From assembly GCA_963651445.1 (NCBI GenBank), contig CAVJPU010000002.1, positions 97,489-161,488 on the forward strand: a stretch of 64,000 bases of DNA, written 5' to 3'. The notes beneath the pieces were generated by a model, which had not been told where the DNA came from, searched no databases, and saw only the letters and a list, made by a program, of their open reading frames with translations. Shown one piece after another: positions 8,239 through 58,931 of this stretch. Position numbers and translations under genes: made by a program. Position 1 is the first letter of the stretch. The number at the start of each line of letters is the position of its first letter. This stretch comes from a bacterium. Its GTDB lineage: Bacteria; Bacillota_I; Bacilli_A; RFN20; CAG-826.

Positions 8239-8994
8239 ATGGCAAATATCATTAGATGCAAATTGCCTGATGGACTTCATCGATTCTCACCGTTTCTTGT
8301 AAAAGACTATAGAGATTTTTTACTCATACGTAATGACATGGAAACTAAAGATGAAGATGAACAGGCGGATATAGTCAATGAATTGGCTGAAGAATACTTT
8401 CCTAGTTTTCCTAAAACTTGGCAACAATATATATTCCTAAATGTCTTTACCGGGTCCATCGGTAAAACAAAAATACCTATTGTGTTTAAATGCCCTATTT
8501 GTGGCAAATCACAAAAACGATTATTTAATATATCCCAGCCCCCATTAAAAGCTCCAGAAATAAAACTTTCGGATTCCGTTACACTAAGATTCAAATTCCC
8601 GGAAATTGATCAGAAATCGTTTGAACAATTAATTTTGGACAATATAGAAACGGTAGTCCACGAAAATGAAGAATACGCTTGGGAAACATTGGACCAATCT
8701 ACAAAAGATAGCATTATTGATTTGATAGATATTAATAAATTTGAAACTATTGTTAAGTCTTTAAAGCCAATTCATTTTGAATTAACCGTAAAATGCTGTG
8801 ACACACAAAAATTAGTATATGATAATCTATTTTCTATTTTCAAACTTCTAATAAACCCGGATGAAGTATTTCCATTTTATGAGATCAATAGTATTTTAAT
8901 TAAAAATGGCTATGATCAAAGAGCAATTATGGAAATGCTGCCGGCAGAAAGAAGTATTGCATTATCTCTAATTGAAAAGGATTCTAAAAAATGA
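8239..8994 (+). CDS. 51: Baseplate hub assembly catalyst gp51
   Basis: 251 aa (T4 about 249), position between 26 and 27, CPICGK zinc-type motif. Confidence 0.8.
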   Translation: MANIIRCKLPDGLHRFSPFLVKDYRDFLLIRNDMETKDEDEQADIVNELAEEYFPSFPKTWQQYIFLNVFTGSIGKTKIPIVFKCPICGKSQKRLFNISQPPLKAPEIKLSDSVTLRFKFPEIDQKSFEQLILDNIETVVHENEEYAWETLDQSTKDSIIDLIDINKFETIVKSLKPIHFELTVKCCDTQKLVYDNLFSIFKLLINPDEVFPFYEINSILIKNGYDQRAIMEMLPAERSIALSLIEKDSKK

Positions 8995-10577
8995 CAACCC
9001 AACAACGCCCTGGATTTCCTAATATCGATATTAGGCTTTATGAAGATTATGATGCGTGGACAGAAAATAGACATCTTGACCTTTCGGTAACATTTACCAC
9101 ATTGACTCTGCGTGACGGGCTATATGGTAGAAATGAAGGTATTTTACAATTTTATGATTCTAAAAATCTCCATGCAAAGTTAAGTGGTGAGCAAATTGTC
9201 CAAATATCAATGGCAAACGCCAATACTAAAAATGTAGTAAGCCGGTTTTATGGCTGTAAAGATACTTCTGTTTCGGTGGATGAAAAAGGTGACAACATCC
9301 TTGCCTTTAACCTTGCGCCGTTGCATGAAGTGGAAAATGTTAAATTCTCAAGAGCATTCTTTGCAAATGGCACAGAAACTATTCAAACAATGGTAAAATC
9401 ATTATACTCTAACAGAACAGAAATCATGCCAGCGGTTGATGGCATTAATGTGTATTGCCCTCGCGTTGCTTGGATCGGAACATTGACTGACTACATGGAA
9501 TATATTCGCGAAGTTGGTTTAGCTGTTGAATCAGAAACTCATGCTTTTGTTTGGGAAGATGTTAACGGGATTAACATATCTGATTATAAATCTATTATTG
9601 ACAAAGACCCAAAAGTAATGGTGGTAGGTGATCCTGCACAAATTGGCTCATACGTCCAAGATATGAAATATCCATTAGTATGGGATTTCGTTTGGGAAGC
9701 TAAAACAAATCGAAATGTTCGTAATCCTTTAGAAAATGTTACTGTATATGCCCATTCGTTTAACGATAAAGAAATCCAAAGAATTTCTGTAGGTGAAGGT
9801 ACAAATACTATTGTGGTCAGTAGATCCGGCGGCTATTCTGAAATGACATACCGAAATGGTTATGAAGAAGCATTTAGATTGTTGACAATGGCTCAATATG
9901 ACGGATACGCTACTTGTAAAACCTCTGGTGATTTTACAATAACCCCAGGTACAAAAATTAATTTTGGTGATACTAAAGGTCAATTTAGAACTGATTTTTA
10001 TGTAGACGAAGTCATCCATGTTATTTCTAATAATGCATCAGAAACTCACCTTTACATGTTTACAAATGGTAAAGACATTGTTCCGGTAGAAATCGAAAAA
10101 ATCAAAAACGAAATTGAGAACATTACACCACCTTCTGATACAACTGTCCCGGAAGCATCCGGCGATAGAAAAGGCGCCCAATGGGATTTAGATATAATGG
10201 CAACTGTTGTTACGCGCAATGCACAAGGTCGTAAAGCAACAGGTAAATGTGCGTTATATGTTCGTAAAGCATTACAAGCAGCCCAGTTGAATAATTATTT
10301 TGCCGGCGGCTTAGGCAATGCTAATGAAATGGCCCCTAAGTTAGTTAATATGGGATGGTTGGCTGTAGGACAAAATGTAACAAATGTACGAAAAGGCGAC
10401 ATTGCAATATTCCAGCGTACTAATACTCCATTGGGATCTAAATACGGGCATATTGCAATTTATAATGGATCACAATGGGTATCCGATTTTATCCAAAAGA
10501 GTGTACAACCAAATAGCAAAGATAATTTAACATATACATTATATCGTACTCGTTACGGGTACAGTGCCGGAGCATAA
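8991..10577 (+). CDS. 27: Baseplate hub subunit gp27 with C-terminal CHAP/NlpC-P60-like extension
   Basis: The N-terminal ~375 aa is colinear with remembered T4 gp27 (QRPGFPNIDIRLYEDYDAWTENR..., SRSGGYSEMTYRNGYEEAFRLLTMAQYDGYA..., FYVDEVIHVISNNASETHLYMFTNG). About 140 extra aa carry GKCALYVRKAL ... GDIAIFQ ... GHIAIYNG (Cys/His papain-like pattern). Confidence 0.9.
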   Translation: MTTQQRPGFPNIDIRLYEDYDAWTENRHLDLSVTFTTLTLRDGLYGRNEGILQFYDSKNLHAKLSGEQIVQISMANANTKNVVSRFYGCKDTSVSVDEKGDNILAFNLAPLHEVENVKFSRAFFANGTETIQTMVKSLYSNRTEIMPAVDGINVYCPRVAWIGTLTDYMEYIREVGLAVESETHAFVWEDVNGINISDYKSIIDKDPKVMVVGDPAQIGSYVQDMKYPLVWDFVWEAKTNRNVRNPLENVTVYAHSFNDKEIQRISVGEGTNTIVVSRSGGYSEMTYRNGYEEAFRLLTMAQYDGYATCKTSGDFTITPGTKINFGDTKGQFRTDFYVDEVIHVISNNASETHLYMFTNGKDIVPVEIEKIKNEIENITPPSDTTVPEASGDRKGAQWDLDIMATVVTRNAQGRKATGKCALYVRKALQAAQLNNYFAGGLGNANEMAPKLVNMGWLAVGQNVTNVRKGDIAIFQRTNTPLGSKYGHIAIYNGSQWVSDFIQKSVQPNSKDNLTYTLYRTRYGYSAGA

Positions 10578-10578
10578 T

Positions 10579-11127
10579 ATGGACACAATTCATTTAGACA
10601 TTAAGCCAATTGTTAAAAAAGTAACAATTAATAATAAAGAAGTAAGCGTTCCTATGCTTGGGCTAAAGCACAAAATGTTATTTGATGAAAATTTATCACC
10701 AAGTGCTAATTTAAAGAAACTTTTAAATTTTGTGCAGCCTAACTTATCTGTCGCTGAGCGTGATTTGCTTTGTTTACACATATTAGCTTTTAATGGGCGT
10801 TCTAAAGATAAAGTTATTGTGGATAACGTTACATATACATTAGATGATGTGTATATTAGCCAAAAACTTAAATTTAATATTGGTGATTACGAGTTTAAAT
10901 TTAAATCTCCGGATGTCGAAACTATTGACGGATCAGTGGATTTAATGCTTAAAAACTGCTGTGTATACGTTAAACACCTAGACGAAAAAATCAAAATTCC
11001 TGATTTTTTAGATTTGCCACCATTTGTTATTAATTGGGCAAATGATATTACAAATACAATTTCAATTAAAACTCATAACGGTATTATTGCCGGTATAAAT
11101 GATGTTTTGGAGTTCTTTAATGGATAA
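10579..11127 (+). CDS. 28: Baseplate hub distal subunit gp28
   Basis: Position and size (182 aa; T4 177). ATG 10579 preceded by GGAG is preferred over the GTG at 10564. Confidence 0.75.
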   Translation: MDTIHLDIKPIVKKVTINNKEVSVPMLGLKHKMLFDENLSPSANLKKLLNFVQPNLSVAERDLLCLHILAFNGRSKDKVIVDNVTYTLDDVYISQKLKFNIGDYEFKFKSPDVETIDGSVDLMLKNCCVYVKHLDEKIKIPDFLDLPPFVINWANDITNTISIKTHNGIIAGINDVLEFFNG

Positions 11128-45734: not shown

Positions 45735-47072
45735 TCAAATAGACGCTAATTCTTTAAGATCGTTTAAATACTCAACTTCTGCCGTAGTACCCATCCAATA
45801 ATCTAATTGAGCCTTAGCCTCTTTAGCTCGCGTTTTTAAAGTTTCTACTTCATCATCGGTCATATGATAAATGTTCATTGACACAAGTTGATCTTCAAAT
45901 CCTACGAAAACTGAAGTTGATGACAATTCTTCTTTTAGTGCCGCCTTGGTCTTGCCTTTAATCACAATATTGTTTGCATTAACTTCTTTAATAAAAATAG
46001 CTTTTGCAATTGCCAATTTAAATGCAGCATCATATTTTTTGACCATAAAGCCAATTCGTTGATTAATAAACTCTAATCTAACTTTGACAAATTGTTCAAT
46101 TAACGGTGCGCAAGAATCAAATTCTCGTAGTTTGCCTGCTTCATCAATGACAACAATATTTTGAGACACTCGTTCGATTAATTTAAAATCGCGTTTAATC
46201 TTTTCGTCGGCTTCAAATGGATCAGCAGGAAGTTTATAGTCCTTCCGAAACTTGACTTTAAAGCCAAAACCAGTTTTAGAACAATCGTCATCATATGAAA
46301 TTAAACCAGCATCTTCCAACGGATCTAAAACCTTTTCAACATATTTCGCACGATCAAATTGTGGAGGAACATCACTGATATAAATCTGTGCTGGCGTTTT
46401 GACTTCATATACACCATGAAGTTCATATTTGCCTTTTTCTACTAAACGGATTTCACCAGAAAACTCAGGAAATTTAACTTCCGGTTCATTAATTTCTTCT
46501 TTTGCTAATGCAGCCATAGTGGATGCAATTACACTTTGCATACAATGCGGAAGAATTTTTGTAGAATAACCAGTAGCAATACCGCTAACGCCATTCAATA
46601 GAACAGTAGGAATAACAGGCAAATAAAACTTAGGCGGCAAATGTTCAACATCTTCATGTGCAGGTGCAATTTCGGCATCTTTATACACTTTTCGAAAATT
46701 ATCAGAAATTCGACAGAAAATATAACGCGATGCCGCTGCTTGCTGTACTAATCGAGTTCCAAAGTTACCTTGGCCATCTAAAAATGGAAAGTTATTATTC
46801 CATGTGTTAGCCATTAATGCGCCGGCTTCTTGGGCTGAGTTTTCGCCGTGATGATACCCGGCATCCGCTACACCACCGGCAACCGATGCTAATTTATGAA
46901 ATTTATCTTTATTGCCTTTTGACATTTCCAATGCTCGATAAATCATAAATCGATGCACCGGTTTAAATCCATCAATCATATTAGGAATTGCCCGGTTTTC
47001 GATTGTATACATGGCATAAGCCAATGCTTCATTGTCGATAATGTCGGTCAATTCACGGTTTACGTTATTCAT
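45735..47072 (-). CDS. 52: DNA topoisomerase II medium subunit gp52 (GyrA-like cleavage-religation subunit)
   Basis: AIPNMIDGFKPVHRFMIY, active-site region AASRYIFCR, 445 aa (T4 442). Confidence 0.92.
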   Translation of the reverse strand: MNNVNRELTDIIDNEALAYAMYTIENRAIPNMIDGFKPVHRFMIYRALEMSKGNKDKFHKLASVAGGVADAGYHHGENSAQEAGALMANTWNNNFPFLDGQGNFGTRLVQQAAASRYIFCRISDNFRKVYKDAEIAPAHEDVEHLPPKFYLPVIPTVLLNGVSGIATGYSTKILPHCMQSVIASTMAALAKEEINEPEVKFPEFSGEIRLVEKGKYELHGVYEVKTPAQIYISDVPPQFDRAKYVEKVLDPLEDAGLISYDDDCSKTGFGFKVKFRKDYKLPADPFEADEKIKRDFKLIERVSQNIVVIDEAGKLREFDSCAPLIEQFVKVRLEFINQRIGFMVKKYDAAFKLAIAKAIFIKEVNANNIVIKGKTKAALKEELSSTSVFVGFEDQLVSMNIYHMTDDEVETLKTRAKEAKAQLDYWMGTTAEVEYLNDLKELASI

Positions 47073-48285: not shown

Positions 48286-49512
48286 TTAGTAATCATATAC
48301 TTCATCGAGTACCGTGTATTCACATGTACGCATTTTAGCATTACCGTAATCCAGCGGAATAGAAACTACATTTTTAGGATCTACAAGTACTCTAACTATT
48401 CGAACATCAGACGATCCACCAAAGTATGCCAAATATGATTTAGAACAAACATGGAGTCCGTGTGAACACGTCTGCTCATCATCTTCATCAACCATATTTC
48501 GTGCCATAGACACCGTAGTACCAGGGCTATTGTCAAATGTATTGGTTCTTATATCTCGATAATTTGATCGAATCTTTTTCCATGCAATAAAATTACCTTC
48601 ATCTGTGATTTCGATATCATTAGCTTCTAAGAAATCAAACAAACGGTTAATAGCTTTATTTGATGGATTTTCCATTAATTTTTCTAAGAAATTAGCGTAA
48701 CGGTCATAGCTGACACCGGAATACATTGAATCGACAATACGTGAAGTCAGCCCGTTCTTTAAATGGAGGCCTTTATAGTATAATTCATAATCTTTGACTT
48801 CAATATTTCCGTGAGTGTATTGGATAATACCTTGTTCTGGATTAATTAAGCCAATTGCAGTATCGAAATCCGATTCGATAAGAGCATTAAGGGCTTGTTT
48901 AAAATTAGAATGGCTTGAATCCGCATTGTATGTTTTACGACCTACGGTAATTGAAATAAAACGGTTCGAAGCATTCCAAATTGGTACTGGTGCTTCTTTT
49001 TTCTCGGCAATACCATTTAAAGCAGGTGGTACATCCGCAGGCTTAAGCTCAATGGTATACACAAATCCAGAGCCAGGTTCGCCAGAATATTCCGCACCGT
49101 ATCGTGTTTCGCGTTTGATCACCTTTCCTACAATTAGTGTTTTTAATGCCCCGATGTCACCGTCGCAAAAAGCCCAAGCTTCCGTTTCCGCTGCTTCTTT
49201 AGCACCCAATGGGCTATTGCCTGTATATTTGTAGGCGCTCTCACAATAAATAATACCATCTTTTGGATCACCGGTTTCAATAATGTCAAATGTGATTAAA
49301 TCGTTCTCAATTTCCAATTTTACACTAGGATTTCGTAAAGCCATTTTGCCGTCATCTAACATAGTAAACATATCTAGACGGCCTTGGTTCTTTTTGATAT
49401 GATATCTAACCGTATCAGAAGAACAGCCAAATGTTCTAGCAATGCTGGCATATGACACCCCGCTTAAGTGTAAAATAATTGCCTTATTTATTTCGTTGTG
49501 ACTTAATTTCAT
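48286..49512 (-). CDS. rIIB: rIIB membrane-associated protector from prophage-induced early lysis
   Basis: N-terminal HTH (SYASIARTFGCSSDTVRYHIKK) and colinear C-terminal two-thirds (IWNASNRFISITV...YNADSSHSNFKQALN..., NPSNKAINRLFDFLEANDIEITDEGNFIAWKK, TCSHGLHVCSKSY, AKMRTCEY). 408 aa vs 312 in T4. Confidence 0.9.
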   Translation of the reverse strand: MKLSHNEINKAIILHLSGVSYASIARTFGCSSDTVRYHIKKNQGRLDMFTMLDDGKMALRNPSVKLEIENDLITFDIIETGDPKDGIIYCESAYKYTGNSPLGAKEAAETEAWAFCDGDIGALKTLIVGKVIKRETRYGAEYSGEPGSGFVYTIELKPADVPPALNGIAEKKEAPVPIWNASNRFISITVGRKTYNADSSHSNFKQALNALIESDFDTAIGLINPEQGIIQYTHGNIEVKDYELYYKGLHLKNGLTSRIVDSMYSGVSYDRYANFLEKLMENPSNKAINRLFDFLEANDIEITDEGNFIAWKKIRSNYRDIRTNTFDNSPGTTVSMARNMVDEDDEQTCSHGLHVCSKSYLAYFGGSSDVRIVRVLVDPKNVVSIPLDYGNAKMRTCEYTVLDEVYDY

Positions 49513-54143: not shown

Positions 54144-54662
54144 TTAAGCTGTCATCCAATCTTTACGTAATTGTGGATCGTTACCCATCAACATTTCGAA
54201 TTTATCTTTCCACAATTCTGGTAATTTGACTACATCAAAATGCGGATCATTAATAACTCGCTCATACTCATTCATTTCCAGACTTCCTAGCCCTTTGATA
54301 TATCGGGCACTCCAGCCTTTGAGATCATCTTTAACTTCTTCATATTCTTCTGAAGTATAGAACCATTTTTGATCTTTACCTTTCTGACAAATCCAAACCG
54401 GTGTTTTAACGAATTTAACTCGACCTTGCTCGAATAATTCTGGCCAATTTGAAAAGAATGCTAATAAAGATGGATAGATAGAACCTGTGCCTAAATTCTC
54501 TAATTAAATGATAGTAGGCTTTCGCCTACCATCTACGTCGGCGTCAGTCATAATAGCGATATTACGATAATTTGTAGAGCCGGTGAATACACGACGAACG
54601 TGTGTTTGAGCTGAGTATGTGTCCATATCGATATCAGTTTTTGCGATTGGAGTTAATTTCAT
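54144..54662 (-). CDS. 60: DNA topoisomerase II large subunit, C-terminal part (gp60-like), interrupted by an internal stop-containing gap (putative translational bypass)
   Basis: ATG 54662 (GAGGT upstream): MKLTPIAKTDIDMDTYSAQTHVRRVFTGSTNYRNIAIMTDADVDG. Then comes a 12-14 codon gap with TAA (54504-54506). The same frame then resumes (T)GSIYPSLLAFFSNWPELFEQGRVKFVKTP...GSLEMNEYERVI...MGNDPQLRKDWMTA*. Both halves are colinear with remembered T4 gp60 (46 + 114 aa; here 45 + 114). Confidence 0.8.
54489..54527 (-). other. Putative coding gap / bypass element (take-off GGU 54530-54528; landing GGC 54491-54489, or GGU 54485-54483)
   Basis: The gap is AGG CGA AAG CCU ACU AUC AUU UAA UUA GAG AAU UUA (GGC). 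A 10-bp stem GAUGGUAGGC/GCCUACUAUC (54533-54510) with a GAAA tetraloop includes the take-off codon. Confidence 0.6.
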
Positions 54663-55476
54663 TGTATACCTCATAAAAGTCATCGTCAGGGCACCAGCCC
54701 GATTTAAATTTAATAAAACATTTTCCAAATAATTTGGATTTGTTACTAATGTTATTATACCTCATCCATTTTGAAATACCCGTTGCTTTAGGACGGTCTT
54801 CATCGTAGTTGTTACAATACCAATCATATAGGCTAGGTATTAATAGAACAATTTGTTTAGAATGTTCCGAATTGTTTTTATAATACCAAGGTCGGGCCCT
54901 TTTGCGTTCTGCTGCTATTGCAGTTGCAGTCTCAAAATTACCAACGCCTTTAAGTCCGAGAGACTTGATTATAGGGTCATTACAGTCTAAAAAATATGTT
55001 TTACCAGTAGAATCTTTAAAGCATGTATGTCGCTTTTTTTATTGATCTTGGTATTTTCTTTGCATAGTTTACACCTTTCCATAAAGATGTATCCACTGTA
55101 TCAACTTTTAGAAGCTTGCAGTGTCCAGTGCTAACATTTCTAAACACTGTTTTGCCTGCCATAAATTCACTAGACCAATCGGAAACTATACTTGAATGTA
55201 TATTTCTTGCAATATCATATGTTCTAGAGCTAATAAACCCCATATGTTTAGAGTTTTCATTCTACCCAATGCAAAGGCCATTTGGCGGTTTTTGTGAATT
55301 TTATACAACAATATATGAGCAATAAAATGCTCTCTATACGTTAGTTTAACTAGATTAGATTTGTCATCCGATCCTCCCATAGAACGCGGCAAAATATGAT
55401 GCCATTCTCCACGTTCTACTTCTAATCGGCCCTGAGACCGTTTAATTAAGTTATTGTATACTACAGCATAATTCAT
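54634..55476 (-). pseudogene. mobA-like HNH homing endonuclease gene, disrupted into three reading frames
   Basis: Frame a (55476-55186) carries the HNH core EWHHILPRSMGGSDDKSNLVKLTYREHFIAH. Frame b is 55243-55016. Frame c (~55030-54634) starts after an A7 run (55034-55040) and ends overlapping the gene 60 start. Its ATG overlaps the stop of the gene 39 middle part (ATGA). Confidence 0.7.
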
Positions 55477-55910
55477 AATAGATCTTTAACTTTCTTCCAT
55501 TGCCCGTCAACTAAAATTTCGTCATTTTCGTTAACAATAGTCCCATCTTCCAGTGTAAAGAATTTACCTTCGCTAGAGTATTCACCGGCAGATCCACCAA
55601 TTGATAAGCCCATGATAGCGCAAATATCAAAAATCTCTTTATTTTTGAGCATATCAGCAGCACTCATACCCCAGGTATTCATTACTTTACCACGCAGCGG
55701 ATAACCACCATGGAGTTCACGATCACGTGTAGAAATCAAATAACCGATCGCACTATTATGAGAAACAGTACCATCAGCAAAACAAAAGCTTTCATCGTCT
55801 TCAACCTGGATGTCTACCATATTGTGATGCTGGCCAGTAGGTTCGTATTCGGTAATATCTTCAAGAATAAATGTAGCTTTGTCGATAAGATTAAAATTAG
55901 TAATATTCAT
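55473..55910 (-). CDS. 39: Split-intein C-fragment (52 aa) fused to the C-terminal 93 aa of gp39 (Toprim region)
   Basis: MNITNF...HHNMVDIQVEDDESFCFADGTVSHN|SAIGYLISTRDRELHGGYPLRGKVMNTWGMSAADMLKNKEIFDICAIMGL. Intein blocks F/G end in HN followed by Ser. The extein continues the GyrB-type EGD-SA.G...R...GYPLRGK motif. Own SD AGAGG. Confidence 0.85.
   Translation of the reverse strand: MNITNFNLIDKATFILEDITEYEPTGQHHNMVDIQVEDDESFCFADGTVSHNSAIGYLISTRDRELHGGYPLRGKVMNTWGMSAADMLKNKEIFDICAIMGLSIGGSAGEYSSEGKFFTLEDGTIVNENDEILVDGQWKKVKDLL
55755..55910 (-). other. IntC (C-terminal split-intein half)
   Basis: Blocks F (VDIQVEDDESFCFADG) and G (TVSHN/S). Confidence 0.8.
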
Positions 55911-57207
55911 TTGATACCTCTTTACCTTGTTTCAAATCATTTATGAATTTATTGACATTATACACCAATACACAATTGCGGAACTTAAGTGCTTTATATT
56001 CTACGTTGTTACAGTATTCCAAATTTTCGGCCTTTGAATTAAAACTGCACAACTCGATATAATATTCTTCACCGTGATACCGTATTTTGATGTCATAAAA
56101 TTTTCTTAACTTACCAGGGTATTTTTTATTGGTGTCTATAACAACCACATCTTCGATGGCCTTTAAAGATGTATACATATCCAATTCTAATGCCGATCTA
56201 AAGAAATGCCCATCAACTGATGATGAATAACTGTAAGAATTTTTAGCTACAAAATTTTTATATCTAATTCGGACTTCTTGAGGTATATCAAAATATTCGA
56301 ATAAATTTAATATTTTGAACGTGTGTTTAAATGCCACTACCCTAGAAACTTTTTTGTCGATTGCCGGATTCTTTGATATGTATGCATCTTCGGCCCTTTG
56401 TAATACTAGACAAAAGCCAATAATTGACATATTTTTACCAATTAAATCTAAACAGTAGCCCTTAAATTTATTTTCGTCATTGACAAATGATGCGTAATTT
56501 GATTGAATCCATGTCTCATTTATTTCGCCATTAACAAACTTCGGTTTAGGTTTAACTCTAGATTTTCTTTTACAAATCTCTTCTTTAGAAAATCTAGAAG
56601 GGTCAAAAATTGACCGTTGTGACCGTTGCAATTCGTTCCATTTGCCAATACCGTTTTTGGAAATAAATTTATTTTTATTTCTATAATATGATAGCTTCCA
56701 ATTAGCAGTTATCTCATTTTGACGACAAGCAGAACGCCCACTATGCGACTGGAATGTAGAATACGATGACACATCCTTATGATTTTTTCTATAAAACGGC
56801 GAGTTATTCCTGTCTAGTATCAATTTTGATGCGTCATCTTCGTTAAGATTATATGCAAATTTTACATACTCTACCGAGTTCGGATTTAATTTTTTAAGGA
56901 AACATCCAGGCTTCCCGCATGCAAAATATTTGCCATATGATTTGTCTCTGGCATGGGTAATATTAGTGCAATCAATTAATATCCCATTAGGAGTTTCTAC
57001 AAGTTCCATAGAATCTTTAAATCCTATGTAGTCCTGTAAATTGCCGCATGCGCATTTTCTAGAATGTTTGGCCTCAAACAACTCAATTAATTCCGGATAC
57101 CGTTTATAAATCATAGTAAACAAGTATTTCTTTAACCGTGGACCAGAATAATTTTTATCAGGTATGGACACCGAAGTGTCCATAAACTTAACGTTTAAAT
57201 GTTTCAT
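55897..57207 (-). CDS. Free-standing endonuclease-like ORF between the intein halves (putative homing endonuclease; Cys-rich N-terminus, PD-(D/E)xK- or Vsr-like C-terminus)
   Basis: 436 aa. ATG overlaps the IntN stop (gtATGA) and the 3' end overlaps the IntC start by 14 nt. N-terminal Cys motifs HSRKCACGN and FACGKPGC. C-terminal GHFFRSALELDMYTSL...FYDIKI...YYIELC gives an E...D...E-x-(K/C) layout. No LAGLIDADG, GIY-YIG or HNH motif seen. Confidence 0.5.
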   Translation of the reverse strand: MKHLNVKFMDTSVSIPDKNYSGPRLKKYLFTMIYKRYPELIELFEAKHSRKCACGNLQDYIGFKDSMELVETPNGILIDCTNITHARDKSYGKYFACGKPGCFLKKLNPNSVEYVKFAYNLNEDDASKLILDRNNSPFYRKNHKDVSSYSTFQSHSGRSACRQNEITANWKLSYYRNKNKFISKNGIGKWNELQRSQRSIFDPSRFSKEEICKRKSRVKPKPKFVNGEINETWIQSNYASFVNDENKFKGYCLDLIGKNMSIIGFCLVLQRAEDAYISKNPAIDKKVSRVVAFKHTFKILNLFEYFDIPQEVRIRYKNFVAKNSYSYSSSVDGHFFRSALELDMYTSLKAIEDVVVIDTNKKYPGKLRKFYDIKIRYHGEEYYIELCSFNSKAENLEYCNNVEYKALKFRNCVLVYNVNKFINDLKQGKEVSNEYY

Positions 57208-58931
57208 ACAATAATTACATCATTTAATGTAATATCTTTAAACTGTTTGAGTTTTAAACCATCGGTATCCATTACAATCATTTCATGAGTAGGACTTGAG
57301 TTAATTCTATGGGTTGTGCCTATAACAGATTTCACAACCATTGATGACTCCGTCAACTCAACAATTTGTCTAGATCTGTTAATAGGACCGCCTAATTCAA
57401 CTAATCGATTTTTTATGAGCTTATGACGGCCCTTTACTAACGAATCTACTCGAATATATTCTACTGTATCCAATACCGTATCATACGCATACAATTTATG
57501 CTCATTTGAATAAATCTTACCGTTAATCTTAATCCCTGGTTTAAGACGAATAGTTTTAGACACTACTTGTTTAAAGTTGTGTTTTGCGGTCATGACTGTA
57601 TCACCAACTTGGATATCTTTGGCCCGGATATTACCATCTAATGTAAAGATTTCGGTATTCTCATCAAAACAGTCACCTTCCGTAAGGAACAAAGTAGTTT
57701 CTAATTCAGAATTACCATATTTGTTTGCTTTGATGTGTTTAGATACTTTAGCTTTTTGAGCAGCTTTGTTGGCTTTAGTTTCGGCGGCTTTTTCGGCAGC
57801 AAGTTTACGAGCAAGTACAGCTTCAATGATTGGCATCAAAATTGATTCAGTATTCATAAATTGTTTGACAATTTTCTTAAAATCTAAATCAATGTGAGAT
57901 TTAATTTCTCCCCATGGCGATGTAAGCCGCTCTTTGGTTTGTGAGTCAAATCGAAGATTGGACATATCTTTTACGAATAATAAAAGTGTCACACATTCTT
58001 TAATTCTGGCTTTGTTTACATCGATTTTAAACTTACGTTTAATTAAAGGAATCAATTCGTTTGAAAGCTCGTCCATAACGTAATCAATATGAGAACCACC
58101 AACTTTAGTATGGATTGCATTTACATATGATAAATGCCTAAACCCATCTTCAGATGTCCCAATTGCTAATTGGACTTTATCACTTTCGTAGCATAAAGCA
58201 TTTTCGTCGTATTGCTTGGCATATTTTTTAAAGTTACCAATGATTCTGCTGCCGTTAAATTTAAACTGAATTTCTGGATAAACCACGGCTAGTGTTTGCA
58301 TTTGGTCTTCAATAATACTAACAATAACATCATCAATTGAATTGCATTCAAAATGACTAAAGTCAGGAATAAATTCTACTTTAGTTCCATGTTTACCACC
58401 GGCTTTAGATTTCCAGTCAATAGTGTCAATATTATTTGTACATTTTACTACAAGAGTATTAGTGCCGTCGCATGTGGTACCGATAAATGAAGTAGAAAAA
58501 ATATTTGTTAATGATGACCCTACACCATTCATACCTGATGTTTTTCGCTCAGAATCTTCACCGAAATTGCCGCCGGCTTTTGTCTTTGTCCATGCAGCCA
58601 CCGGACCGGGAATACTATCGCCTTCCGGGGTTGTAATCATTGCTTGCGGAATACCACGACCGTTATCTTCAACCGTGACAAGATTTTTTTCCGTATCGAT
58701 AGTTACAGAAATTTTATTCGCGAATTCGAAATTGGTTCTAACGGCTTCGTCAATGGAATTATCTCGAATTTCTTCAATTAATTTTACAATTGCTGGCACA
58801 TATTTTAATTTAACGTATTTGCCAAATTGGAACCGTTCATATTCTTCAGATGATGTACTACCAACGTACATCCCAGGACGCTTAATAACATGTTCTTTAT
58901 CACTAAGCATTTTAATTTCATTTTTAATCAA
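57204..58931 (-). CDS. 39: DNA topoisomerase II large subunit gp39, N-terminal 420 aa (GHKL ATPase + transducer), fused to split-intein N-fragment (155 aa)
   Basis: TTG start after GGAG: MIKNEIKMLSDKEHVIKRPGMYVGS, DEAVRTNF, VEDNGRGIP, GMNGVGSS, ...TLFLTEGD|CFDENTEIFTLDGNIRAKDIQVGD... The Toprim EGD is followed by Cys1 and Hint block A. A block B-like SSPTHEMIV lies near the end, then a stop. Confidence 0.88.
   Translation of the reverse strand: MIKNEIKMLSDKEHVIKRPGMYVGSTSSEEYERFQFGKYVKLKYVPAIVKLIEEIRDNSIDEAVRTNFEFANKISVTIDTEKNLVTVEDNGRGIPQAMITTPEGDSIPGPVAAWTKTKAGGNFGEDSERKTSGMNGVGSSLTNIFSTSFIGTTCDGTNTLVVKCTNNIDTIDWKSKAGGKHGTKVEFIPDFSHFECNSIDDVIVSIIEDQMQTLAVVYPEIQFKFNGSRIIGNFKKYAKQYDENALCYESDKVQLAIGTSEDGFRHLSYVNAIHTKVGGSHIDYVMDELSNELIPLIKRKFKIDVNKARIKECVTLLLFVKDMSNLRFDSQTKERLTSPWGEIKSHIDLDFKKIVKQFMNTESILMPIIEAVLARKLAAEKAAETKANKAAQKAKVSKHIKANKYGNSELETTLFLTEGDCFDENTEIFTLDGNIRAKDIQVGDTVMTAKHNFKQVVSKTIRLKPGIKINGKIYSNEHKLYAYDTVLDTVEYIRVDSLVKGRHKLIKNRLVELGGPINRSRQIVELTESSMVVKSVIGTTHRINSSPTHEMIVMDTDGLKLKQFKDITLNDVIIV
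57207..57671 (-). other. IntN (N-terminal split-intein half)
   Basis: Begins at Cys codon 57671-57669, immediately after the ...LTEGD extein residue. Ends at stop 57206-57204. Confidence 0.8.

Follow-up and report, generated by a model that had tools for sequence, protein, structure and literature searches.

A split intein and a MobA/bypass element, probably two mobile cassettes, in one topoisomerase II large-subunit gene of a T4-like phage

The gene for the large subunit of topoisomerase II in a T4-like phage is encoded as four translated pieces on the minus strand, at positions 58931-54144 of a 64,000-nucleotide (nt) stretch of DNA (contig CAVJPU010000002.1 of GenBank assembly GCA_963651445.1, positions 97,489 to 161,488 of the forward strand; hereafter the window). 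The interruptions are a split intein with an endonuclease open reading frame (ORF), a damaged HNH gene, and a gap of 39 nt. We propose, with a probability of roughly 0.8, that two mobile cassettes have been inserted in this one gene, and that protein trans-splicing, a 39-nt bypass by the ribosome, and assembly of the products follow. The phage is a relative of Acinetobacter phages, and the anatomy of the locus, its homologies, its conserved signals, and the purifying selection acting on it are demonstrated below. An earlier note on this DNA had listed five segments at this span (the N-part of gp39 with an intein N-half, an endonuclease-like ORF, an intein C-half with the middle of gp39, an HNH gene, and gp60 with an internal gap), and all five are present. 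Chance is excluded for these assignments by the E-values of the homology matches and by the conservation of the same junctions in other loci. The note had also counted three stacked elements. The interruptions are indeed there, but the HNH gene and the gap form one mobile cassette, so the count is two cassettes and not three.

Acinetobacter phage ZZ1, in which the whole large subunit ("gp60plus39") is contained in a single ORF of 608 amino acids (aa), served as the uninterrupted reference. ZZ1 has no insert at the predicted joins (TLFLTEGD-SAIGY and DADVDG-TGSIYPSLL), and because its sequence spans them, both joins are fixed to the residue. Residues 1-420 of ORF1 (58931-57204, 575 aa) are 82% identical to residues 1-420 of ZZ1 (tblastn E=0) and 64% identical to T4 gp39, and this N-extein matches phrog_543 at 8e-174 together with Pfam HATPase_c and DNA_gyraseB. 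The topoisomerase homology ends at ...TLFLTEGD and is followed by C421...V575 with Hint matches. ORF3 (55910-55473, 145 aa), which shares the frame of ORF1, is made up of 52 aa that end in ...VSHN, a middle extein that begins SAIGYLISTRDREL..., and a 37-aa tail. The middle extein is 86% identical to ZZ1 residues 420-476 and matches phrog_543 at 8e-25. The tail, a C-terminal extension (CTE), is missing from ZZ1, has 80% nt identity to Lazarusvirus phages, and resembles the tail of T4 gp39, TIIVNENDEVQINGKWITVGEL. ORF1 begins with TTG (58931), preceded by GGAG 7 nt upstream, and this start codon may lower expression of the N-fragment. At the equivalent position, the large subunits of ZZ1 and T4 have Met (MIKNEIK).

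The first insert lies between D420 and S421 (junctions TEGD/C...SHN/S), with Cys as its first residue, His-Asn as its last two, and Ser at position +1. By these residues it is a canonical class-1 intein, whose two halves are encoded on either side of a separate ORF. Homologues were found in two metagenomic T4-like contigs (L005 and L006) and in IMGVR_UViG_3300025121_000014 (L011, 233 kb). None of the four homologues, that of the window included, departs from C1, S55/H58, H206-N207, and the +1 Ser, or from the C-half pattern NMVDI..DDE.F..G..SHN/S; the joined halves are 32-67% identical. In Pfam, Hint_2 matches ORF1 residues 421-458 with 27.3 bits (curated cutoff, 28.4), and Intein_splicing matches the joined halves across the split, at residues 111-207 (E=1.5e-5; 25.3 bits, cutoff 35.8). 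A profile of the four homologues gave nine weak matches in the PDB (E 0.09-0.85), six of which are inteins (gp41-1, CDC21, and DnaE), and these alignments fall at blocks A/B and F/G. The intein N-part aligns with the gp41-1 intein in blocks A and B; a phmmer search of the PDB with the intein returned nothing.

The layout of the intein locus is also conserved. The ATG of ORF2, the ORF between the intein halves, overlaps the stop codon of ORF1 (ATGA), and its 3' end overlaps the start of ORF3 by 14 nt (...NEYY-stop and MNI...). Both overlaps recur in L005 and L006. A contiguous intein broken by sequencing errors was considered and rejected, since the same stop/start overlaps are seen across three loci whose endonucleases are only 49-50% identical. 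The downstream ORF of L005 and L006 encodes the rest of the large subunit, without MobA and without the gap, and because these loci carry the intein alone, the intein cassette occurs independently of the MobA cassette described below. The same intein site and layout were found in L011 and in MGS5 (L050, IMGVR_UViG_3300028048_000060), with a comparable overlap of endonuclease gene and intein C-half in L050. The net charges of the halves are +4 (N-half) and -10 (C-half). From the conserved catalytic residues and this charge complementarity we infer protein trans-splicing: ORF1 and ORF3 would be translated separately, and the intein halves would associate and then trans-splice to give a gp39 of 513 aa.

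Several further observations concern the inteins of this and related loci. The N-half of the window has ~67 residues beyond block B (57471-57207; N-half residues ~89-155), including a second TxxH-like motif, SSPTHEM, to which the Pfam Intein_splicing model aligns instead of to block B S55-H58. The viral type II topoisomerase encoded by L011 (3136-8391) differs greatly and is fused (GyrB+GyrA-like), yet it has a split intein at the same TEGD/S site and, between the halves, a free-standing endonuclease with an N-domain that matches ORF2 and a Vsr-like nuclease domain (IIEYNGKIWH). In L005, the gene for RNA ligase 2 (rnlB, 8671-10722, 683 aa) matches Intein_splicing and LAGLIDADG_2 and thus carries an rnlB intein; rnlB of the window (53877-52861, 338 aa) is intein-free. 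Finally, the 146-aa "ORF1" of MGS2 in Table S2 of a preprint on MobA/bypass cassettes (Manning & Atkins, bioRxiv 10.1101/2022.08.31.505936, 2022) begins with an intein C-half, ...FLLGNGIISHN/SALGG.... Its authors flagged it as a possible misassembly (10.1101/2022.08.31.505936); a simpler reading is that, like ORF3, it encodes the downstream half of a gene that carries a split intein.

ORF2 lies in a frame that differs from that of ORF1 and ORF3. Neither ORF2 nor any of 33 family members scanned gave a Pfam or PHROG match. An exhaustive profile search returned 194 representatives at E<0.001. In an alignment of 33 members (29 near full-length and four shorter ones covering the C-terminal region), S338, E341, D372, and E385 of the C-domain were invariant, and the C-domain pattern of the family, FRS..E..FY...YDF.I...YIEICG, is PD-(D/E)xK-like. 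The family profile matched the nuclease domain of archaeal Bax1 at a borderline E=0.005. When the ORF2 model (pLDDT 76) was compared with the PDB by Foldseek, mostly restriction-endonuclease-fold proteins were returned, the best at E=0.05 and none at E<0.01. Membership in the Vsr family was not accepted: the Vsr-type core ((F/Y)E(F/Y)xGxxWH, Asp/His/Asp) is lacking, the corresponding stretch reads ...YDIKI...YYIELCS... with no His, and there is no Pfam match. The motif C..KKLNPNS..F....Y......A..LI..RNKSPFY of the N-domain, a region presumed to bind DNA, is common to ORF2 and to the Vsr-type homing endonucleases of L011 and MGS5, which occupy the same topoisomerase intein site. We conclude that the intein cassette very probably has ORF2 as its homing endonuclease.

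The ORF2 family is modular, combining a common N-domain (NPNS...RNKSPFY) with either of two nuclease domains. Among 153 family proteins, at least 36 have the Vsr-like motif (...IIEFHGSxWH...) and at least 20 are of the S..E/D/ExCG/S type seen in ORF2. Pfam and PHROGs lack both sets of modules.

The second cassette, 56 codons downstream of the first, would be a MobA element made up of the gp39 tail, the HNH gene, a new gp60 N-terminus, and the gap. In MobA elements, an HNH ORF of ~270-280 aa is expected out of frame and overlapping both neighbors, with a CTE of ~44 aa plus a 44-45-aa N-terminal extension (NTE). In the window the mobA ATG overlaps the ORF3 stop codon (ATGA) and mobA shares its last 29 nt with the start of gp60; the HNH product is 280 aa after correction of its reading frame, the NTE is 45 aa, and 37 aa of CTE extend beyond the ZZ1 homology. 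The HNH gene is homologous over 280 aa to an intact 282-aa Lazarusvirus endonuclease (tblastn E=3e-105) and matches phrog_655 at 1e-36, with a weak Pfam HNH match. From the middle extein through the HNH gene and gp60, the Lazarusvirus phages Stupor, Abraxas, AB-Navy-v2, LemonAid, and phi1_092060 show 75.5-76.4% nt identity to the window, and the loci of AB-Navy-v2 and Stupor (L001 and L002) have an intact 282-aa HNH gene between gp39 and a two-piece gp60.

The frame disruption of the HNH gene, already noticed in the earlier note, comes down to exactly two 1-nt changes in A-runs: one base lost in an A4 run (55257-55254) and one gained in an A7 run (55040-55034), with the 72 codons between them out of frame and the product truncated at 96 aa. 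Either the two changes arose very recently or they are sequencing errors at homopolymers. In favor of an error, which would leave an intact and active 280-aa MobA and two live cassettes, the changes are single bases of opposite sign in A-runs, and their reversal (one A added to the first run, one removed from the second) leaves no other defect: it yields an uninterrupted protein of 280 aa that is 71% identical to Stupor MobA, with a ratio of nonsynonymous to synonymous substitution rates (dN/dS) of 0.14. However, with four bases the A4 run is rather short to be miscalled as a homopolymer, no interruption is seen in the long ORFs of the topoisomerase locus, and rIIA, rnlB, lysozyme, dexA, and dda (~2,400 aligned residues) align to ZZ1 in single frames. 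MobA pseudogenization is, moreover, common in other phages, laboratory T4 included (10.1101/2022.08.31.505936). Because the neighboring genes are free of frameshifts, real mutations are the favored and likelier reading, and a sequencing or assembly error is a tentative second.

gp60 (54662-54144) starts with an ATG preceded by GAGG 6 nt upstream and contains one internal TAA. Its first segment matches phrog_19082 at 1e-18, the spliced reading matches phrog_7229 at 5e-63, and, across the gap, the second segment shares 72% identity with ZZ1 residues 478-608. Directly after the invariant Gly codon of the Toprim DxDxDG motif stand exactly 39 extra nt, in frame, that are missing from ZZ1 (DADVDG-TGSIYP), and ordinary reading is halted solely by the TAA at 54506-54504. 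The elements of the gap follow one another in the order GGT (54530-54528), AGG (54527-54525), a hairpin (54533-54510), the TAA, GAG (54500-54498), six A/U, and GGC (54491-54489), after which ACA GGT TCT... encodes TGS.... Skipping the 39 nt from GGT to GGC gives the ZZ1 protein exactly. Only one sense codon is rarer in the long ORFs of the window than AGG, the codon in the A-site (10 of 16,346 codons, 0.061%), and no tRNA gene was found in the 64-kb window. The take-off hairpin has 10 base pairs (bp) and a GAAA (GNRA) loop and folds at -17.3 kcal/mol for 25 nt (T4: 10 bp, UUCG loop, -14.0 kcal/mol); the 63-nt gap region folds at -18.3 kcal/mol (z=-3.3 vs shuffled sequences). An exact-pattern scan of IMG/VR for the hairpin, GGTAGGCGNAAGCCTACTAT, found no copy.

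Homologous gaps are present in Stupor, AB-Navy-v2, MGS1, and T4. By direct count, the gap is 42 nt and in frame in Stupor and AB-Navy-v2 (L001 and L002, 4890-4849), and 40 nt in MGS1, where alone it shifts the frame. The 3' half of the window gap is visibly homologous to that of T4, and 6 nt separate its GAG, which has an A/U-rich context, from the landing GGC that follows, just as in T4. The gp60 extension keeps the T4 bypass residues Y16, Q19, V22, and R23-R24, and its Y32, M38, and T39 are the equivalents of T4 Y33, M39, and T40, as judged from the T4 sequence and the residues listed in the preprint (10.1101/2022.08.31.505936). The window, AB-Navy-v2, Stupor, and MGS1 all have GGC as the landing codon, whereas the next Gly codon varies synonymously (GGT, GGC, and GGA). 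No conservation at the protein level is seen in the gap codons that follow the TAA (LENLG vs FSRIFG).

These features suggest that ribosomes probably skip the gap to make one gp60 polypeptide. The ribosome would pause when peptidyl-tRNA-Gly occupies GGU and the A-site holds AGG, a very rare codon; the take-off hairpin would form, the tRNA would unpair, and the ribosome would slide 39 nt, aided by pairing of the GAG to 16S rRNA. It would then re-pair on GGC and resume at ACA, giving a 159-aa gp60 that reads ...DVDG-TGSIYP... as in ZZ1 (predicted junction, ...IMTDADVDG-TGSIYPSLLAFF...). gp39, gp60, and gp52 would then assemble non-covalently, as in T4. The same gap could be crossed by in-frame readthrough of UAA, leaving a 13-aa insert, or gp60 could be made as two polypeptides by termination and re-initiation. 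The single TAA and the in-frame length of the gap in both the window and Lazarusvirus agree with readthrough. Against it, the frame shift in MGS1 indicates that an in-frame gap is not a property of the family; conservation is seen in the hairpin, in the GAG, and in the landing GGC, not in the codons that readthrough would translate, and the fixed landing codon is followed by a synonymously variable one. The 13-aa insert would also sit directly after the invariant DxDxDG metal site, and UAA is the least leaky stop codon. Re-initiation is opposed by the lack of any in-frame start codon for 71 codons after the landing site. Both routes are thus improbable next to bypassing.

The locus bears the marks of strong purifying selection. 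In all four topoisomerase pieces, dN/dS against relatives is 0.07-0.10, with synonymous sites near saturation (N-extein, 0.09 vs ZZ1; middle extein with CTE, 0.08; gp60 second segment, 0.09), and the intein halves show 0.10-0.26 (C-half, 0.10 vs L006). gp52, the partner of the split large subunit, is intact and matches phrog_551 at 3.5e-192 over residues 1-443. Because of these ratios and the intact gp52, the locus does not appear to be decaying. The earlier note had named a second intact gene 39 as evidence of a pseudogene; none occurs within the 64 kb, and a DNA-level search found a single matching place in every listed related phage record. The 53-60 kb part of the window contains no T4-type late promoter motif (TATAAATA), and sigma-70-like matches are no more than chance would give.

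Several points weigh against the proposal of two cassettes and its consequences. The Pfam scores of the intein are below the curated cutoffs, its PDB sequence matches have E>0.08, and an AlphaFold prediction of the joined halves as one sequence was uninformative (pLDDT 28). ORF2 has no significant structural match, and its designation as a nuclease comes from motifs and the one borderline profile match (E=0.005). The gap is in frame, so that UAA readthrough would also yield a full-length protein with the 13-aa insert. The search for a second gene 39 covered the window, which is 38% of the 167-kb genome. Lastly, it is from sequence that we infer splicing and bypassing in this phage, bypassing in any AGG-type cassette, the assembly of gp39, gp60, and gp52, and the nuclease activity of ORF2.

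Some of these points bear on the possibility that the intein halves no longer splice and act only as non-covalent docking domains for the ORF1 and ORF3 products. Unspliced assembly has a precedent in Aeh1 NrdA, the product of a phage gene split by a homing endonuclease (PMC3045599), and the N-half is unusually long (155 aa) with sub-threshold family scores. Against this, Cys1, the block-B His, the penultimate His, the terminal Asn, and the +1 Ser are invariant down to 32% identity, and both halves are under purifying selection. The split also lies inside the conserved EGDSA motif of Toprim, a place unlikely to accept two added domains of 155 and 52 aa. Docking without splicing is thus quite unlikely, and trans-splicing is retained as the preferred reading. 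Least probable of all is that the locus is a decaying, unexpressed pseudogene in a phage that uses host gyrase or another copy: four interruptions in one gene, a visibly damaged mobA, and the inspection of only 38% of the genome would fit it, but each of the four pieces has a low dN/dS with synonymous sites near saturation, stops and frameshifts are confined to mobA and the gap, gp52 is intact, no second copy lies in the window, and the related phage records listed by the DNA-level search each have a single matching place.

As to the origin of the elements, the N-part of gp39 has higher nt identity to ZZ1 (76.5%) than to Lazarusvirus (70.8%), and the 168-nt middle extein is slightly closer to Lazarusvirus (83%) than to ZZ1 (78%). 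Recent transfer of the MobA cassette from the sequenced Lazarusvirus phages was rejected, the identity of the cassette (74-80% nt) being about equal to that of the four flanking segments (71-83%); the values are compatible with an older acquisition or an unsampled donor. As for the earlier suggestion that the cassette is either ancient or horizontally moved, there is no sign of recent transfer in the window, and the literature has largely resolved the matter in favor of repeated insertions (10.1101/2022.08.31.505936). No phage with the intein or the endonuclease was found when ORF2, the N-half, and the C-half were searched by tblastn against 50,697 GenBank phage records. Scans of IMG/VR and JGI metagenomes with ORF3 gave extein matches only, starting from residue 52/53, and no second intein C-half with CTE among close relatives. 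Among the genomes in the collections searched, only the window has this intein together with an HNH MobA cassette. A composite of this kind is not new: the stacking has been described (Manning & Atkins 2022), and so has each element.

A joint reading, which we regard as rather doubtful, is that the two cassettes interact and that ORF2 is an unclassified nuclease-domain variant. The intact ORF2 would cut intein-less topoisomerase alleles ~170 bp from the MobA site, and the repair tract would co-convert the MobA/bypass cassette, so that a dead MobA and its bypass could spread by hitch-hiking on a second selfish element. ORF2 would then define a Bax1-like variant (S..E...D...E-x-C) of the modular endonuclease family found in fractured genes.

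The coordinates of the features are collected in Table 1. Elsewhere in the window, a homologue of rIIB (48286-49512, 408 aa) was identified whose N-terminal 40 residues match phrog_664, a DNA-binding-protein PHROG (E=9e-5).

Table 1. Features of the topoisomerase II large-subunit locus and of gp52 in the window
Feature	Positions	Strand	Remarks
gp39 N-extein, 420 aa	57672..58931	-	GHKL ATPase, transducer, and start of Toprim; ends ...TLFLTEGD; TTG start
Intein N-half, 155 aa + stop	57204..57671	-	Begins with Cys1; block B S55-x-x-H58; in frame with N-extein
ORF2, free-standing, homing-endonuclease-like, 436 aa	55897..57207	-	NPNS/RNxSPFY N-domain; PD-(D/E)xK-like C-domain (S338, E341, D372, E385)
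Intein C-half, 52 aa, acidic	55755..55910	-	Ends ...DGTVSHN
gp39 middle extein, 56 aa, SAIGYLISTRDRELHGGYPLRGKV..., Toprim	55587..55754	-	Homology to ZZ1 and phrog_543
gp39 CTE, 37 aa, ...TIVNENDEILVDGQWKKVKDLL, + stop	55473..55586	-	From the MobA cassette
mobA-like HNH homing endonuclease gene, frame-disrupted	54634..55476	-	Homology to Lazarusvirus endonuclease and phrog_655
gp60 first segment, 45 aa, MKLTPIAKTDIDMDTYSAQTHVRRVFTGSTNYRNIAIMTDADVDG	54528..54662	-	Ends at take-off GGT; phrog_19082
Coding gap, 39 nt	54489..54527	-	AGG, hairpin, TAA, GAG, landing GGC
gp60 second segment, 114 aa, TGSIYPSLLAFFSNWPELFEQ...RKDWMTA, + stop	54144..54488	-	Homology to ZZ1 and phrog_7229
gp52, topoisomerase II medium subunit, 445 aa, intact	45735..47072	-	phrog_551

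If the proposal of two cassettes is correct, one essential enzyme subunit needs trans-splicing, ribosome hopping, and assembly of gene fragments. The locus also illustrates how selfish elements can build up and decay next to one another in a conserved motif that acts as a "safe haven". No new principle is revealed by the locus. Rather than on a metagenomic fragment, it lies on a 167,038-bp contig, about the size of related complete phage genomes, and it offers a useful natural test bed. To our knowledge, the stop-less, AGG-dependent, in-frame bypass variant has never been tested experimentally. The new split intein, with its Ser +1 junction, may be of value as a protein-ligation tool.

Among the known systems closest to the window is the T4 cassette of gene 39, mobA, and gene 60, with a 50-nt translational bypass, reportedly described by Huang et al. 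in 1988 and Bonocora et al. in 2011. The earlier note had recognized this arrangement in the window, and rightly so: the 39/60 break, the HNH gene, the gp39 tail, and the gp60 N-extension correspond to the T4 cassette, and the gap follows the same invariant Gly. The two share the break point in Toprim, a homologous gp39 C-tail, an HNH gene between the halves, the conserved residues of the gp60 N-terminus (Y16, Q19, V22, R23-R24), the 10-bp hairpin, and the GAG 6 nt before landing. They differ in the hairpin loop (GAAA in the window vs UUCG in T4) and in the intein, which T4 does not have.

Dozens of MobA/bypass cassettes were reported by Manning & Atkins (bioRxiv 10.1101/2022.08.31.505936, 2022), among them a clade 5 with Stupor, Abraxas, and metagenomic MGS1, characterized by an AGG hungry codon, GGU/GGC as take-off and landing codons, and GCAA or GAAA loops. 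The window resembles this clade in its AGG, its GGU/GGC, its GNRA loop (GAAA, as in MGS1), its ~280-aa HNH MobA, and its overlapping ORFs. It differs in the length of the gap (39 nt vs 42 nt in Stupor and 40 nt in MGS1) and in its damaged mobA, which is intact in Lazarusvirus; the Lazarusvirus loci examined (L001 and L002) have no upstream split intein, and the MGS1 scaffold excludes ORF1. Identity of the window with MGS1 was rejected, as the gp60 and gap sequences differ.

The same composite is present in MGS5, a bovine rumen virus listed in Table S2 of the same preprint, with an ORF1a that carries an N-terminal Hint domain (10.1101/2022.08.31.505936); this domain is taken from the table and lies outside the stretch that was re-read as L050. 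In that stretch the order is the same as in the window: the intein site reads ..THN/SA, the intein C-half, ORF1b, and CTE together have 143 aa (145 aa in the window), the homing endonuclease has an N-domain homologous to ORF2 and a 3' end that overlaps the ORF of the C-half, and a second endonuclease and an ORF2 with bypass follow. By contrast, MGS5 belongs to a distant phage lineage, its second endonuclease is GIY-YIG and not HNH, its first has a Vsr-like nuclease domain (IIEFHGSLYH) instead of the ExCG/S type, and its bypass is GAC/GAC with UAG.

"Fractured genes", in which split inteins such as gp41-1 have a free-standing homing endonuclease between their halves, have been described for eight host enzymes, topoisomerase not among them, and there the 3' end of the endonuclease gene overlaps the gene of the C-half by 6-69 bp (Dassa et al. 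2009, PMC2677866). The window shares the separate ORFs for N-half, endonuclease, and C-half, the overlap (14 nt), and a phage DNA-metabolism enzyme as host, and the best PDB sequence match of its intein is the gp41-1 intein. The N-half of the gp41-1 intein has 88 aa, whereas that of the window has 155 aa, and the endonuclease domain of the window is neither GIY-YIG nor clearly Vsr-like. In Aeromonas phage Aeh1, nrdA is split by mobE, an HNH endonuclease of the Mob family, and tails provided by the element are thought to restore assembly (PMC3045599). That system likewise has an HNH Mob endonuclease splitting an essential enzyme gene, in a different host gene and with neither intein nor bypass, and the same role is proposed here for the gp39 tail and the gp60 N-extension.

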